From IMG/VR virus record IMGVR_UViG_2541047713_000005: DNA of 4,646 nucleotides; one strand, written 5' to 3'. The notes beneath the pieces are model-generated. The model was not told the origin of the DNA. It did no database searches and saw nothing but the letters and a program-made list of their open reading frames with translations. Below are positions 1-4,475 of the stretch, in pieces. Both the position numbers and the translations under genes were made by a program. Every line of letters starts with the position of its first letter. The stretch's first letter is position 1. Origin of the DNA: a virus (taxonomy: Duplodnaviria; Heunggongvirae; Uroviricota; Caudoviricetes).

Positions 1-1506
1 TCTGCAAGCGCGGCGGCTGCTTCTGCCACTGCATCAGCTAACAGTCAAAAAGCAGCAAAAACCAGTGAAACCAACGCAAAGGTGAGCGAAACAGCGGCTG
101 CGAACTCAGCGAAAGCATCGGCAGCAAGCCAGACGGCAGCTAAAGCAAGCGAAGATGCAGCCAGAGAGTACGCAAGCCAGGCTGCGGAGCCGTATAAATA
201 TGTCTTACAGCCGCTGCCTGATGTGTGGATACCATTTAACGATTCGCTGGATATGATTACGGGCTTTTCGCCGTCATATAAAAAAATTGTTATTGGTGAC
301 GATGAAATAACGATGCCTGGCGACAAGATTGTTAAGTTTAAACGTGCATCGAAAGCAACCTATATTAACAAATCTGGTGTGCTGACAGAGGCTGCCATTG
401 ACGAGCCACGATTTGAACGTGATGGCCTGCTTATTGAGGGGCAAAGAACTAATCTTCTGCTTAATTCAACAAATCCATCTAAATGGAATAAGTCAGGCAA
501 TCTGGAACTCACAGAAATATCCACGGATTCTTTTAATTTTACTTATGGGAGATTTACTGTAAAAGATACTCTTATTGGTCAGACAAGTGCTATTAATATC
601 GTAACGGTTTCTGGCAGTAAAGGGTTTGATGTCACAGGTGATGAAAAATATGTGACCATTTCATGCCGTGTAAGAAGTGATGTTGAAAATGTAAGGTGTC
701 GTTTAAGATTTGAACACCATGATGGTTATACTTACACTTTTTTGGGAGATGCTTACCTCAATTTATCAACACTTGTAATTGATAAAGCTGGTACTGCTGC
801 AGACCGTATTATTGCAAAGGCTGTAAAAGATGAGGTTACTGGTTGGATTTTCTATCAGGCTACAATTAATGCACTAGATACAGAGAGCATGATTGGTGCG
901 ATGGTTCAATACGCTCCTGTAAAAGGTTCAGGCACAGCATCTGGAGACTATCTGGATATCGCAACTCCACAAGTGGAAGGTGGATCAAGTGCTTCGTCAT
1001 TTATTGTAACTGATATAACTGCAAGCACTCGCGCAAGCGATATGGTGACAGTCCCAATCAAGAATAACCTTTATAATCTTCCTTTTACGGTTCTTTGTGA
1101 GGTACATAAGAACTGGTATAAAACGCCAAATGCAGCGCCACGTGTTTTTGATACCGGCGGTCATCAAACCGGAGCGGCTATTATTCTTGGCTTCGGTCGT
1201 TCAACAGATTACGACGGATTTCCTTATTGCGATATTGGAGGAGCTAACAGACGGGTAAACGAAAACGCATCGCTTGAAAAAATGGTTATGGGGATGCGTG
1301 TAAAGTCAGAGCAGTCTACGTGCTCAGTAAGTAACGGGCATATATCCAGCGAAACAAAAACCACATGGTCCTGTATTCAGAACACCGCAATTATCCGTAT
1401 TGGAGGCCAGACTACAGCCGGGTTACGTCATTTATTTGGTCATGTCAGGAATTTCAGAATATGGCACAAGGCATTGACTGATGCTCAGGTGGGGGAGTCA
1501 ATCTAA
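1..1506 (+). CDS. Phage tail fibre protein, 5'-partial (start lies upstream of window); Ala/Ser-rich repeat shaft, distal domain ending in a LamG/concanavalin-A-like signature
   Basis: Frame 1 is open from nt 1 (SASAAAASATASANSQKAAKTSETNAK...) with no stop until TAA at 1504-1506. The 'M' at 82 in the ORF track is an in-frame GTG, not a real start. The N-proximal A/S/T/E/K-rich imperfect repeats are typical of side-tail-fibre shafts. The C-terminus ...LRHLFGHVRNFRIWHKALTDAQV resembles the C-terminal consensus of LamG-like lectin domains (recalled, not searched). GC-rich for the first ~200 nt, AT-rich afterwards. Confidence 0.85.
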   Translation, partial: SASAAAASATASANSQKAAKTSETNAKVSETAAANSAKASAASQTAAKASEDAAREYASQAAEPYKYVLQPLPDVWIPFNDSLDMITGFSPSYKKIVIGDDEITMPGDKIVKFKRASKATYINKSGVLTEAAIDEPRFERDGLLIEGQRTNLLLNSTNPSKWNKSGNLELTEISTDSFNFTYGRFTVKDTLIGQTSAINIVTVSGSKGFDVTGDEKYVTISCRVRSDVENVRCRLRFEHHDGYTYTFLGDAYLNLSTLVIDKAGTAADRIIAKAVKDEVTGWIFYQATINALDTESMIGAMVQYAPVKGSGTASGDYLDIATPQVEGGSSASSFIVTDITASTRASDMVTVPIKNNLYNLPFTVLCEVHKNWYKTPNAAPRVFDTGGHQTGAAIILGFGRSTDYDGFPYCDIGGANRRVNENASLEKMVMGMRVKSEQSTCSVSNGHISSETKTTWSCIQNTAIIRIGGQTTAGLRHLFGHVRNFRIWHKALTDAQVGESI

Positions 1507-1787
1507 TGAAAGATTTAACACTCAAATTTGCCGACAGGGCCGACTTTTCGGCCTTTATGGATAGCACTGGCTATTATGATGACGAGTCGATGCAGGATGA
1601 TATTCTTATTGACGTGATAGGTAACGTGTACAAAGAAACCGGAGAACTGACTGAAGATGGCGAACCGGTATGTGTTAAGGAAGACGGATATTTTGTAAAC
1701 GTGCGCATCATTAATGATTCGCAAATATCGTCATTATTCGATGAATACGTGGTTGCTGTTGAGCATCAACTTCGTGGCTGGATGTGA
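1506..1787 (+). CDS. Hypothetical small acidic protein (93 aa), translationally coupled to the upstream fibre gene; possible fibre chaperone or adaptor
   Basis: ATG at 1506-1508 overlaps the fibre stop (TAATG). Uninterrupted 93-codon frame, acidic composition (many D/E). The downstream gene starts 10 nt after its TGA stop, giving an operon-like arrangement. No family recognised by eye. Confidence 0.6.
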   Translation: MKDLTLKFADRADFSAFMDSTGYYDDESMQDDILIDVIGNVYKETGELTEDGEPVCVKEDGYFVNVRIINDSQISSLFDEYVVAVEHQLRGWM

Positions 1788-1796
1788 GGAAGAAAA

Positions 1797-2837
1797 ATGG
1801 CTACATCGACAGTAATTCCTGATGACATCAAAACGCAAAAATCCGACGTTAGCAAATTAAAAAACGATCAAGGAAGCTACGCAACAAAATTATATGTAGA
1901 CAGCAAAGATAAATTCGTTGGTGACTGCAATGTAATCTATGATCAAAAAACATTGCCAACAACTGGAACTATATTTGGCGGTAAGCTCCGCTTAACTCAC
2001 AGGACTGGTGGAACGGAGGACGCGTATAGTGAACTATATCCCAAAAAAAATATAGATGGTACTAGTAACACAATGGCGCGCCTTAACCTGAACGATAACG
2101 GGACAAACATTTGCTGGGACTTTACCAACCTTTATGGCGGTACGATGATTTTTCCCGGTAGCGGCGGATACCTCAAAATGGGTAACTGCCTTATGTCATA
2201 CAGCAAGCGTGGAAGTAACGCGCTTATTAAATTTGATTACACCGACACATTACAGATCAAATATGCCAATCATGGGTCAACCATGACATTAAACACACAG
2301 GGAACCGCTTATGCTGGTGTTACTGCTCAATTGTGGGGCAACACCAGCCGTCCTGTTGTTTATGAAGTCGGTGTTGATGGTGGCGCTTATATGTTCTATG
2401 CGCAGAAAAATACCGATAACACCTATATGTTAAGCGTTAATGGTGCATGTCATGCCACCGCATTTAACCAGCATTCCGACCGGGATCTGAAAGACAACAT
2501 TCAGGTGATCGATAATGCAACCGACCGCATCCGTAAAATGAACGGCTATACATACACGCTTAAAGAAAACGGTATGCCCTATGCTGGTGTCATTGCACAG
2601 GAAGCTCTGGAAGCAATCCCAGAAGTTGTAGGTTCCGCAATGAAATATCAGGACGGTGCAAGCGGATCGGAAGGTGAAGAAGGTGAACGTTATTACACAG
2701 TAGATTATTCTGGTGTTACTGGCTTGCTTGTTCAGGTAGCCAGAGAGTCAGACGACAGAATAACAGCACTGGAAGAAGAAAACGCAGAATTAAGACAAAG
2801 ATTATCTGCAATTGAGGCGGCGCTTGCGTCTAAATAA
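1797..2837 (+). CDS. Short tail-fibre tip / receptor-binding protein with C-terminal intramolecular chaperone (peptidase S74-type) auto-cleavage domain
   Basis: SD GAGGAAG at 1786-1792, 6 nt before ATG 1797. Residues ~170-215 (AQLWGNTSRPVVYEVGVDGGAYMFYAQKNTDNTYMLSVNGA) resemble the conserved distal segment of P2 gpH / T4 gp37-type fibres (from memory). Residues 227-232 S-D-R-D-L-K (Ser codon at 2475-2477) have the Ser/Lys i,i+5 spacing of the endosialidase-chaperone catalytic dyad. The C-terminal helix ITALEEENAELRQRLSAIEAALASK is typical of this domain. Confidence 0.85.
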   Translation: MATSTVIPDDIKTQKSDVSKLKNDQGSYATKLYVDSKDKFVGDCNVIYDQKTLPTTGTIFGGKLRLTHRTGGTEDAYSELYPKKNIDGTSNTMARLNLNDNGTNICWDFTNLYGGTMIFPGSGGYLKMGNCLMSYSKRGSNALIKFDYTDTLQIKYANHGSTMTLNTQGTAYAGVTAQLWGNTSRPVVYEVGVDGGAYMFYAQKNTDNTYMLSVNGACHATAFNQHSDRDLKDNIQVIDNATDRIRKMNGYTYTLKENGMPYAGVIAQEALEAIPEVVGSAMKYQDGASGSEGEEGERYYTVDYSGVTGLLVQVARESDDRITALEEENAELRQRLSAIEAALASK

Positions 2838-2843
2838 TATTAA

Positions 2844-2864
2844 GGGGCCGAGCGCCCCGTTTTA
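2844..2864 (+). terminator. Putative intrinsic terminator after the fibre operon
   Basis: GGGGC (2844-2848) / GCCCC (2854-2858), an all-GC 5-bp stem with a 5-nt loop, followed by G-TTTT-A (2859-2864), 7 nt downstream of the TAA stop at 2835-2837. The stem is short, hence moderate confidence. Confidence 0.45.
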
Positions 2865-2879
2865 TTGGGTAGGATGAAA

Positions 2880-3173
2880 ATGGATATAACACCTTTCCTT
2901 CATGCGCTTTGTGCTGTGGCTGCGCAGCTACTGATTGGTCTTTTTACCGGGAACTGGGCTTACGGGGCGATAGCCGGTTGTACGTTCTTCATTGCGCGTG
3001 AACACACCCAGGCAGAATATCGCTGGATTGAAATGTTCGGGCATGGCAAGCGAATGAATATGCCGTGGTGGGGCGGTTTTGATCCGCGCGCGTGGGATGT
3101 GGCAAGCCTGATGGATTTTGCTGTGCCGGTGGTGGCGTGTCTGCTGGTCTGGCTGTTGGTTAATCGTGGGTGA
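2880..3173 (+). CDS. Hypothetical small integral membrane protein (~97 aa, 2-3 predicted TM segments)
   Basis: ORF open from TTG 2865; in-frame ATGs at 2874 and 2880. ATG 2880 has an AGGA (2871-2874) 5 nt upstream and is preferred. Hydrophobic stretches FLHALCAVAAQLLIGLF, AYGAIAGCTFFIA and LMDFAVPVVACLLVWLLV. About 55% GC, unlike the AT-rich fibre genes. The antisense ORFs over this region lack such features. Confidence 0.55.
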   Translation: MDITPFLHALCAVAAQLLIGLFTGNWAYGAIAGCTFFIAREHTQAEYRWIEMFGHGKRMNMPWWGGFDPRAWDVASLMDFAVPVVACLLVWLLVNRG

Positions 3174-3183
3174 AAAAAGGTGA

Positions 3184-3312
3184 GCTGTATATGCAACGGA
3201 GGAAGAAACTCCGTTGCTGGAAGCCTGGAAGAAGTATCGGGTGTTGCTGAACCGTGTTGATACATCAACTGCACCTGATATTGAGTGGCCTACGAACCCT
3301 GTCAGGGAGTAA
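3184..3312 (+). pseudogene. tfa: 3' remnant of a tail fibre assembly gene (tfa); no start codon, ~42 codons
   Basis: Frame 1 reads [42 protein letters not shown] directly after a TGA at 3181-3183, with no in-frame ATG/GTG/TTG. It matches the C-terminus of lambda-type Tfa (…[26 protein letters not shown]…, recalled). Relative to copy 2 it carries a 9-nt in-frame deletion. Confidence 0.75.
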
Positions 3313-3326
3313 TCATTGGGATTATG

Positions 3327-3359
3327 CCGCAGCACGTCTTAAGCAAGAACGTGCTGCGG
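3327..3359. terminator. Perfect 11-bp inverted repeat (hairpin) between convergent genes; possible bidirectional terminator or RNA-stability element
   Basis: CCGCAGCACGT (3327-3337), 11-nt loop, ACGTGCTGCGG (3349-3359), which are exact reverse complements. It lies 15 nt after the tfa-remnant stop and 8 nt beyond the methyltransferase stop (TAG, complement of 3367-3369). No U-tract immediately follows on either strand, so it is not a canonical intrinsic terminator. Confidence 0.4.
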
Positions 3360-3366
3360 TTGGATG

Positions 3367-4035
3367 CTATTTTTTCCCTGAAGCGGAAAACATTACTACA
3401 GTACCTTGAACCTTGGTTTTAACATTCTCGAAATGCTCTGAGAGTATATGTGTTAAGCCTTCTTCGGAATCTTTTGTGTTTGAAAAGATGCCTTTCTGAT
3501 TGTAAATGCGCATCAGTTTTTGACCGAAGCTATTGTGCACAACTCCATCGCCAAGAATTGTGGCTCCGTATAGAGTTCCATCGTCAGTTAAGGCCTGCGC
3601 CGCATTGCGTATTACACAGCTTTTTGTAGATATATTTCCAGGCAGGCAGTGAAGAAGGTAAAACATGGAAATGGAATCAAATTGACCATGTAACGCCGCG
3701 GGATAAGGTTCAAAAACATCATGGCTAATTTTATGTTTAATTTTTGATTCCCCAGCCCTTGTAGATGCCGCGTTCAGGCTAGCTTCGTTCAAATCCATTA
3801 AAGATATCAGACTACTCTCAGGTACGTGAGTAAGGTAAAACCCAGTTCCAACACCAATATCCAGATGGTTGTTACCTACATGTTCCAGAAAGTGTGGAAG
3901 AAGGTGTTCCTTTGTAGGACATCCCCATGCAAGCCGATTTGATACTCCCAAAACCCACCAGTCATAAAGCTTTAGGGTAAGTGGTGTGTAAATTTTAGCC
4001 CCATCATCTGTGTTTTTTTTCATTGATTTCACCAT
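3367..4035 (-). CDS. Class I (Rossmann-fold) SAM-dependent methyltransferase, probably not a DNA methyltransferase
   Basis: Motif I LDIGVGTGFY (the hh-D-h-G-x-G-x-G SAM-binding loop), a downstream acidic residue in ISLMDLNE, and a motif II-like FDSISMFYLLHCLP. No D/N/S-PP-Y/F/W motif IV. Stop TAG is the complement of 3367-3369. Two candidate starts: ATG at 4035 (no SD) and ATG at 4023 (GGTGA 5 nt upstream), the latter giving 218 aa and more likely. About 40% GC. Confidence 0.85.
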   Translation of the reverse strand: MVKSMKKNTDDGAKIYTPLTLKLYDWWVLGVSNRLAWGCPTKEHLLPHFLEHVGNNHLDIGVGTGFYLTHVPESSLISLMDLNEASLNAASTRAGESKIKHKISHDVFEPYPAALHGQFDSISMFYLLHCLPGNISTKSCVIRNAAQALTDDGTLYGATILGDGVVHNSFGQKLMRIYNQKGIFSNTKDSEEGLTHILSEHFENVKTKVQGTVVMFSASGKK

Positions 4036-4091
4036 GTTATAGTTTTATTTGTGAATTAAATCAATTATGGCGATGAATTACAAGGGGTTAA
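4036..4091. promoter_or_regulatory. AT-rich divergent intergenic region, putative promoters for the methyltransferase (-) and truncated tfa (+)
   Basis: A 56-bp AT-rich spacer between divergent starts. Minus strand: candidate -10 CATAAT (complement of 4064-4069) with a weak -35 TTTAAC 17 bp upstream. Plus strand: TATAGT at 4038-4043 and TTGTGA at 4049-4054 are possible elements. Read by eye, not scored. Confidence 0.3.
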
Positions 4092-4361
4092 ATGCTGCCG
4101 CAGCATAGCGATATTGAAATAGCCTGGTATGCTTCGATACAGCAGGAGCCGAATGGCTGGAAGACCGTCACCACACAGTTCTACATCCAGGAATTCAGTG
4201 AGTATATTGCGCCACTGCAGGATGCTGTAGATCTGGAAATCGCAACGGAGGAAGAAAGATCGTTGCTGGAGGCATGGAATAAATATCGGGTATTGTTGAA
4301 TCGTGTTGATACATCAACTGTACCTGATATTGAGTGGCCTGCAAATCCTGTCAGGGAGTAA
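4092..4361 (+). CDS. tfa: Tail fibre assembly protein, N-terminally truncated (89 aa; corresponds to the C-terminal half of lambda-type Tfa)
   Basis: SD AAGGGG 4-5 nt before ATG 4092. The C-terminus [53 protein letters not shown] aligns closely with the lambda Tfa C-terminus (…[53 protein letters not shown], from memory). Lambda-type Tfa is ~190 aa, so the N-terminal domain is missing. Confidence 0.8.
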
Positions 4362-4412
4362 TCATTGGGATTATGCCGCAGACACGTCGTATGCAGGAAC
4401 GTGCTGCGGTTA
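4219..4412 (+). repeat. Direct repeat copy 2 (tfa 3' end plus degenerate hairpin)
   Basis: Partner of 3178..3362. The hairpin at 4376..4409 keeps both arms but has one bulged A (4382) and a loop that differs at 3 of 11 positions. Confidence 0.85.
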
Positions 4413-4475
4413 GTTTGTGAGCTTTCGATAGTGGTTGTTATTTTTGCCCTTATTTGTTCCGGAGGCCATGGTTCA

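Follow-up and report, generated by a model that had tools for sequence, protein, structure and literature searches.

ybcY at the tail-fibre end of a lambdoid prophage: an intact allele of a putative small-molecule methyltransferase gene carried as prophage cargo

Why does a methyltransferase gene lie antisense to the tail-fibre genes at the end of a lambdoid prophage, and whom does it serve? The question was raised by a stretch of 4,646 nucleotides from the IMG/VR virus record IMGVR_UViG_2541047713_000005 (Caudoviricetes), which as a whole is called the window below. The original prediction, made from the letters alone, had described a complete class I S-adenosylmethionine (SAM)-dependent methyltransferase gene, antisense between two remnants of a tail-fibre assembly gene (tfa), and this arrangement was confirmed by the list of open reading frames (ORFs), the Pfam thresholds and the Caudo_TAP profile. 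On sequence comparison, the gene is an intact allele of ybcY (b0562), a pseudogene of the DLP12 prophage of Escherichia coli K-12; it is thus already catalogued, and it represents no new kind of element. With a probability of about 0.6, we propose that intact ybcY is a self-contained cargo unit at the tfa end of lambdoid prophages and that its product methylates a small metabolite, a toxin or a lipid head group.

The identity with ybcY was seen at several levels. The protein was 100% identical to WP_000240999.1 ("class I SAM-dependent methyltransferase"), and it matched phrog_2132 (PHROG 2132, function unknown) with an E-value of 4e-157. The K-12 gene shared about 99% DNA identity, the orientation and the order tfaD-ybcY(minus)-tfaX. 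Counted as a coding sequence at 80% coverage or more, ybcY was found in 3799 of the 5426 complete E. coli genomes (about 70%), at up to four places per genome, and it is among the most widespread E. coli prophage cargo genes. In addition, 15 phage records carry the gene, including 2G7b, ev243, several PhiR phages, Kati and Turner. The original prediction had missed this long-catalogued identity. As a side observation, copies with 99% identity to the E. coli gene also turned up in metagenome bins assigned to Bacillus sp. and Planococcaceae; they lie on short contigs that are almost certainly mis-binned E. coli prophage.

The longest methyltransferase ORF comprises 222 amino acids (aa; 3367..4035, minus strand), and it scored above the Pfam gathering thresholds of Methyltransf_12, _23, _25 and _11. 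The true start is probably Met5, with the ATG at 4023, which gives a ybcY-family class I methyltransferase of 218 aa (3367..4023, minus strand), assigned by Pfam, PHROG and the structure model. Several observations make this start probable: homologues are mostly 218-224 aa long and Met5 is invariant among them, the PHROG profile match starts at residue 5 of the ORF, residues 1-14 are disordered in the predicted model, and the 218-aa form was called by the Prokaryotic Genome Annotation Pipeline (PGAP) in a strain without the first ATG. Furthermore, the Met5 ATG is preceded at a distance of 5 nt by a Shine-Dalgarno-like sequence, GGTGA (4029..4033, minus strand), which presumably pairs with the 3' end of the 16S rRNA. 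Directly after this ATG follows a run of eight A (4013..4020, minus strand), which the alignment to K-12 DLP12 revealed to be the site of the 2-bp deletion that turns the K-12 gene into a pseudogene. The intact A8 run was present in 63 fetched copies and the K-12-type lesion in three. Phase variation at the run was considered as a common mechanism and was rejected, because only K-12 lineages differ in length.

The AlphaFold model of the protein was confident, with a pLDDT (predicted local distance difference test) of 90.1 and a pTM (predicted template modelling score) of 0.86. In fold searches it resembled small-molecule and lipid methyltransferases, i.e., JHAMT, PmtA, DhpI, BelI/CysG and Coq5. 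The glycine-rich motif I is present (LDIGVGTG, ORF residues 58-65) and highly conserved in the family, an acidic residue ends strand 2, and the fold is of the seven-stranded Rossmann type, as is typical of class I enzymes. Across 71 diverse members Y20, H53, D77, S117, H125, G153 and D185 are invariant, and C35 and C126 nearly so (Met5 numbering). The profile and Foldseek searches, which had been named as a means to place the protein, assigned it to no characterised housekeeping family.

The same analyses bear on the idea that the gene serves phage defence, anti-defence or DNA modification. Its location in a cargo slot at the tail-fibre/attachment end, where accessory genes accumulate, and its putative own promoter, a published site that is described below, would both fit such a role. 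However, the (D/N/S)PP(Y/F/W) motif of N6-adenine and N4-cytosine DNA methyltransferases does not occur in the protein and no restriction gene was found in the window by ORF, Pfam and PHROG scans, both as the original prediction had stated. The protein consists of a single 218-aa domain and has no target-recognition domain, the Pro-Cys dipeptide of C5-cytosine DNA methyltransferases is absent from it, and no DNA methyltransferase was among the top fold hits. A search of PADLOC-DB 2.0 yielded only mad2 (E 0.0091, 12.9 bits), with no matched stretch passing alone and no partner gene, and the viral structures of BFVD contained nothing above 16% identity or a TM-score of about 0.6. Most family members, moreover, are lone chromosomal genes outside mobile elements. 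A link to defence or anti-defence, which had been suggested from the position of the gene, was thus not substantiated, and we regard this explanation as very improbable.

In all contexts that were compared (the window versus an argU stub, O157 and K-12), the common unit extends from about 3321 to 4118 and comprises a hairpin, the gene and an AT-rich spacer. The phages Tritos, HannyBb and PhiR63_1 match positions 1-3290 of the window at about 97% and then diverge, and the gene is absent from them, whereas 2G7b has it. Tritos has pinR where the cassette would be. The unit therefore behaves as a moron, i.e., as cargo that is present or absent between near-identical phages. The best full-length matches of the window were lambdoid prophages adjoining an ompW fragment, yciE and trp, and the position of the gene is the right end of a lambdoid prophage. 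Three of the usual criteria class the unit as a moron, but its composition does not set it apart from the neighbouring tail-fibre genes. The GC content of the gene is 41.1% (0.411), which is low for E. coli but similar to the 0.42-0.43 of the adjacent tail-fibre genes; it is below only the tfa pieces (0.47-0.48) and a 102-aa ORF (0.54). Apart from composition, the earlier description of a moron with an open substrate, located where the tail-fibre genes of a lambdoid prophage end and other than a DNA methyltransferase, was sound with respect to both the presence/absence pattern and the lack of motifs.

The unit is embedded in repeats of tfa sequence. On the left side, a tail-fibre assembly gene is represented by a 3' remnant of about 40 codons (3193..3312, plus strand), which PGAP labelled as a tail fiber assembly pseudogene without N-terminus and which forms the left repeat copy. 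On the right side, divergent from the methyltransferase, a tfaX-like truncated tail-fibre assembly ORF of 89 aa was found (4092..4361, plus strand; Caudo_TAP E 1.7e-24). It covers only the C-terminal part of the Caudo_TAP profile, matches phrog_2341, and was likewise called a pseudogene missing the N-terminus by PGAP. The direct repeat of about 170 bp (3193-3361 versus 4242-4411, 90% identical) consists of the tfa 3' end and the hairpin and encloses the methyltransferase plus the 5' part of tfaX; within it, 3193-3332 and 4242-4381 are likewise 90% identical. In the right copy (4242..4411, plus strand; repeat families D1 and D5, 90% identity) the tfa 3' end is followed by a degraded hairpin.

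The hairpin next to the gene has 14-15 bp and separates the methyltransferase stop codon from the tfa remnant that converges on it (3326..3360, no strand assigned). Its fold energies were -28.5 kcal/mol on the plus strand and -25.4 kcal/mol on the minus strand, with z-scores of -4.5 and -4.3, and none of 200 shuffled sequences was as stable. The proposed downstream hairpin is therefore real, but it has no U-tract on the methyltransferase strand, it was not called by the terminator scan, and a degraded copy (about 4375-4411, z -1.3) also follows tfaX. It is possible that the hairpin acts as a bidirectional transcription stop or RNA end. Because O157 lacks the left tfa remnant but retains the hairpin beside the gene, the view that the hairpin belongs only to tfa has to be softened.

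Three further observations were made at this locus. First, the hairpin sequence (window 3327-3375 and 4376-4433) recurs with 83-86% identity at a third kind of site, between a regulator gene and the integrase of Tritos (locus positions 8045-8103), and these phages may reuse it as a terminator or as a boundary between modules. Second, PGAP called a 45-aa hypothetical protein, WP_001309429.1, at 3285-3422 of the window (plus strand; 12285-12422 of the E. coli Ecol_316 locus), which crosses the hairpin and, on the other strand, extends into the 3' end of the methyltransferase; this annotation is probably spurious. Third, in O157:H7 E32511 the gene lies beside genes annotated as manganese catalase, as two ferritin-like proteins and as a general stress protein (locus positions 1290-3503, 5050-7362), product names that are those of the chromosomal yciE, yciF and yciG, and an ISEc8/IS66 element is found on the other side. 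The slot thus also holds a second block of cargo. An invertase site was also considered: the 12-mer AAAACCAAGGTT at 3409-3420 (minus strand), inside the methyltransferase 3' end, resembles the core of Hin/Gin/Pin crossover sites. The 12-mer is single and partnerless in the window and is missing from the pinR-bearing Tritos locus, and the idea was rejected and the resemblance treated as chance.

The AT-rich divergent spacer between the methyltransferase and tfaX (4036..4091, minus strand) has a GC content of only 26.8%. The ybcY/tfaX spacer has been reported as a binding site of the sigma-70 holoenzyme in a SELEX (systematic evolution of ligands by exponential enrichment) study, with TTGATT-17-TATAAC for ybcY and an H-NS flag (Shimada et al. 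2014, PMC3946193). The same hexamers are present in the window, i.e., TTGATT at 4064-4059, a 17-nt spacer, and TATAAC at 4041-4036 on the minus strand. An alternative candidate on the minus strand, TTAACC at 4091-4086, 16 nt, and CATAAT at 4069-4064, was preferred by the promoter scan, and a start from it would leave a 5' leader containing GGTGA. The shared hexamers support the earlier suggestion that the gene is probably an independently transcribed cargo gene.

The intactness of the gene was analyzed in several samples. All 80 IMG/VR copies that were retained, a sample biased to the best matches, were of full length. Among 39 full-coverage hits drawn evenly along the E. coli ranking, 34 were exactly 669 bp long; the remaining five were three K-12 lab lineages with the 2-bp deletion and two that lose only the first ATG. 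Three copies were fetched from a band of about 98% identity; all three lie in argU stubs, and the methyltransferase was intact although integrase and tfa were pseudogenes. The order in these stubs was tRNA-Arg, integrase pseudogene, tfa pseudogene, intact methyltransferase, ompT, ybcH and nfrA, which agrees with the ompT/ybcY context reported for CFT073, UTI89, 536 and others. Routine disruption of the ORF in related genomes, an outcome that would have counted against the original prediction, was thus not observed. The ratio of nonsynonymous to synonymous substitution rates (dN/dS) was 0.14-0.21 for the window versus three argU stub alleles and 0.29 versus the O157 copy, values that rest on only 4-7 synonymous and 3-4 nonsynonymous differences. 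The gene thus persists longer than its prophage, which points to an advantage for the host.

These results have to be weighed against the possibility that ybcY is a functionless hitch-hiker, which is kept only inside a repeat-flanked segment that recombines between prophages. The frameshifted K-12 copy and the mutant without reported phenotype would be in accord with this, the H-NS flag of the spacer means that the gene may be silent, and the flanking tfa repeats would allow an easy spread by homologous recombination. However, such a passenger would hardly be expected to stay intact in stubs with integrase and tfa pseudogenes and to show the low dN/dS against the stub alleles; length-altering lesions were confined to K-12 lab lineages in the even sample of 39 genomes, and identities of at least 50% are retained across distant Proteobacteria. 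A mere hitch-hiker is therefore improbable.

The wider family is large. In species-representative genomes (one genome per species), 527 relatives were found, with identities of at least 50% as far as Pseudomonas and Xanthomonas. The family reaches Yersinia pestis, Proteus, Photorhabdus, Pasteurellaceae, Pseudomonas, Xanthomonas, Dyella and Noviherbaspirillum, and an exhaustive profile search yielded 426 clusters (50% identity) at E <= 1e-30, almost all of them single-domain proteins of 215-240 aa. Among longer members, only unannotated extensions, alternative starts and one RCC1 fusion (in a lichen-fungus gene model) were detected in the search for domain fusions. The relatives at 50-68% identity are mostly stand-alone chromosomal genes: STM1638 of Salmonella lies between a PMT_2 gene and rydC/cybB, the Yersinia relative is a lone chromosomal gene, the Enterobacter relative follows liv and DUF4156, the Erwinia relative lies between an esterase and DoxX, and the Aeromonas relative between insertion sequence (IS) elements. 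The GC content of the family genes varies from 0.29 to 0.62 and equals that of the flanks in many genera, and the gene is AT-rich compared to its flanks in Enterobacter, Klebsiella, Citrobacter, Morganella and Hafnia. Because the relatives are chromosomal and their GC content matches the flanks, the phage copy of E. coli is an offshoot of an old chromosomal family and not a phage invention. That the relatives are mostly ordinary chromosomal genes also argues against a phage-specific role.

An origin from a host chromosome is also part of the main rival explanation, namely that the gene encodes an RNA (tRNA or rRNA) modification methyltransferase that was taken up by the phage. The ordinary chromosomal setting of the relatives would suit such an enzyme, and the fold searches pointed to small-molecule and lipid methyltransferases; we consider this explanation rather unlikely.

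Two observations concern the neighbours of family members. In 15-17 Pseudomonas genomes a same-strand run of DUF6388, the methyltransferase, enoyl-CoA hydratase and CorA (locus positions about 4659-7537) was the only conserved neighbourhood found, and it could be an operon or plain synteny. In Salmonella, STM1638 is the immediate upstream same-strand neighbour of the small RNA gene rydC (locus 8001-8663). RydC activates cfa, which encodes a lipid-acting SAM-dependent methyltransferase; in other species the orthologue has a different neighbour, and the proximity may be a coincidence.

How could the small-molecule methyltransferase proposed here work? The gene would be transcribed in the lysogen from its own sigma-70 promoter, probably damped by H-NS, and independent of and convergent with late transcription. 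SAM would be bound by the GVGTG loop together with D77 for the ribose and D102 for the adenine (Met5 numbering), and the methyl group would be transferred to the O, N or S atom of a small molecule that is widely available; this could be a metabolite, the head group of a lipid, or a toxin or xenobiotic. As base or metal ligand, the enzyme might use His125, which is invariant in the family and follows strand 4 with Cys126 next to it. The host would benefit, and not the replication of the phage, and this would explain why the gene outlives its prophage. Maintenance in rotted prophages together with a conserved chromosomal family across Proteobacteria suggests a real function at the level of the host; the gene is real and probably useful to the host.

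Several results weigh against this proposal. The protein passed the threshold of no characterised family in NCBIfam, PDB-profile and fold searches. When the neighbours of 71 loci were clustered, no neighbour was conserved across genera, and thus no pointer to a pathway was obtained. The promoter-like sites in the spacer region were not above chance in the local scan, and the SELEX evidence was obtained in vitro, on the K-12 allele and at a site flagged as H-NS bound. The dN/dS values are based on the few differences given above. Lastly, K-12 has no working copy, and no phenotype is reported in the literature for a mutant. The literature on ybcY, STM1638, WP_000240999 and the DLP12 methyltransferase yielded no functional data; a ybcY mutant was reported to leave Hha toxicity unchanged. 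Identification of the substrate would assign a function to STM1638 and to thousands of genes that are annotated as "class I SAM-dependent methyltransferase".

The remainder of the window is a tail module. It contains a tail protein (82-1506, phrog_1419), a phrog_1361 ORF (1506-1787) and a tail fibre with a Peptidase_S74 intramolecular chaperone (1797-2837), and the methyltransferase ORF is antisense to these tail-fibre genes. Next follows a small ORF of 102 aa (2865-3173, plus strand), which matches phrog_1443 and has no assigned function. With a GC content of 0.54 it is GC-rich for the window, and it looks hydrophobic and membrane-like. It is located between the S74-chaperone fibre and the tfa remnant, the usual slot of a full tfa gene, and it is kept in phage Tritos, where it is labelled as a hypothetical protein. 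In E. coli Ecol_316, the closest full-length match of the window, the upstream side tail-fibre gene is represented by two pseudogene fragments (8128-8494 and 9490-10506). Because this gene is split, the prophage of Ecol_316 may be defective; the methyltransferase is intact.

The gene could also encode a PmtA-like N-methyltransferase of phospholipid or other lipid head groups, which would alter the membrane of the lysogen and would represent true lysogenic conversion. Bacterial PmtA (PDB 8YS9) was at rank 2 in Foldseek with the best whole-target coverage, its length and overall fold are similar (TMt 0.66-0.68), and phosphoethanolamine methyltransferases recurred in both fold searches. In NCBIfam weak matches to PmtA and RquA were obtained, but no curated cut-off was reached: the scores were 15.7 versus 390 bits for PmtA (NF045882), 16.9 versus 175 bits for RquA (NF038261) and 18 versus 180 bits for CpaM (NF043040). 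The identity to PmtA is only 16-17%, and the E-value of the PmtA PDB profile was only 0.073. E. coli is not known to make methylated phosphatidylethanolamine or phosphatidylcholine without a heterologous enzyme, although about 70% of the strains carry ybcY. A PmtA-like activity is thus distinctly unlikely.

The best match among solved structures was JHAMT (PDB 7EC0/7EBS), a small-molecule carboxyl O-methyltransferase, with a profile E-value of 8e-6, a Foldseek E-value of 9e-12 and 21% identity. In contrast to YbcY, this insect enzyme is about 40-70 residues longer, the TM-score was only 0.48-0.55, and the match is limited to the Rossmann core.

A further comparison concerns the pair BelI/CysG (PDB 9FCE, 9FD3), metal-dependent carboxyl O-methyltransferases of belactosin/cystargolide biosynthesis, in which D77 binds the SAM ribose, D102 the adenine, and His122, His123 and Asp191 hold the catalytic metal (PMC11408123). 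An hhalign comparison with the family gave a probability of 97% and aligned D77 with D77, D102 with D102, H125 with H122, and C126 with H123. The His-His-Asp motif thus reads His-Cys in YbcY, and the alignment ends before Asp191; the identity is 16-18% in the structural alignment and 23% with hhalign. Furthermore, BelI and CysG sit in biosynthetic gene clusters, whereas the ybcY gene stands alone. The aligned residues support an enzyme that methylates small molecules, with a catalytic His following strand 4 and perhaps a site for a metal. They do not show membership in the His-His-Asp family, as His at this position is common in the clan. A tentative extension, which has a low probability, is that the YbcY family is an unrecognised class of small-molecule methyltransferases in which a His-Cys site, possibly metal-binding, replaces the His-His of BelI/CysG, and that E. 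coli gained the gene via lambdoid prophages and domesticated it, keeping it beside ompT once the prophage had decayed. If this were true, lysogens would be measurably fitter or more competitive through its product, for example a methylated toxin, metabolite or envelope lipid.

Two comparisons are within the family itself. STM1638 and the other chromosomal orthologues share the family, the length and the invariant residues with the window protein, and none of them has been characterised; in the literature, STM1638 appears only as a "putative SAM-dependent methyltransferase". They differ in that they are lone genes outside prophages, whereas the copy of E. coli lies in a prophage between tfa repeats. 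The K-12 ybcY follows a full tfa gene, and its 2-bp deletion in the A8 run also destroys the Met5 ATG. In contrast, the cassette of the window follows the S74-chaperone fibre and the small membrane-like ORF, and its copy of the gene is intact.
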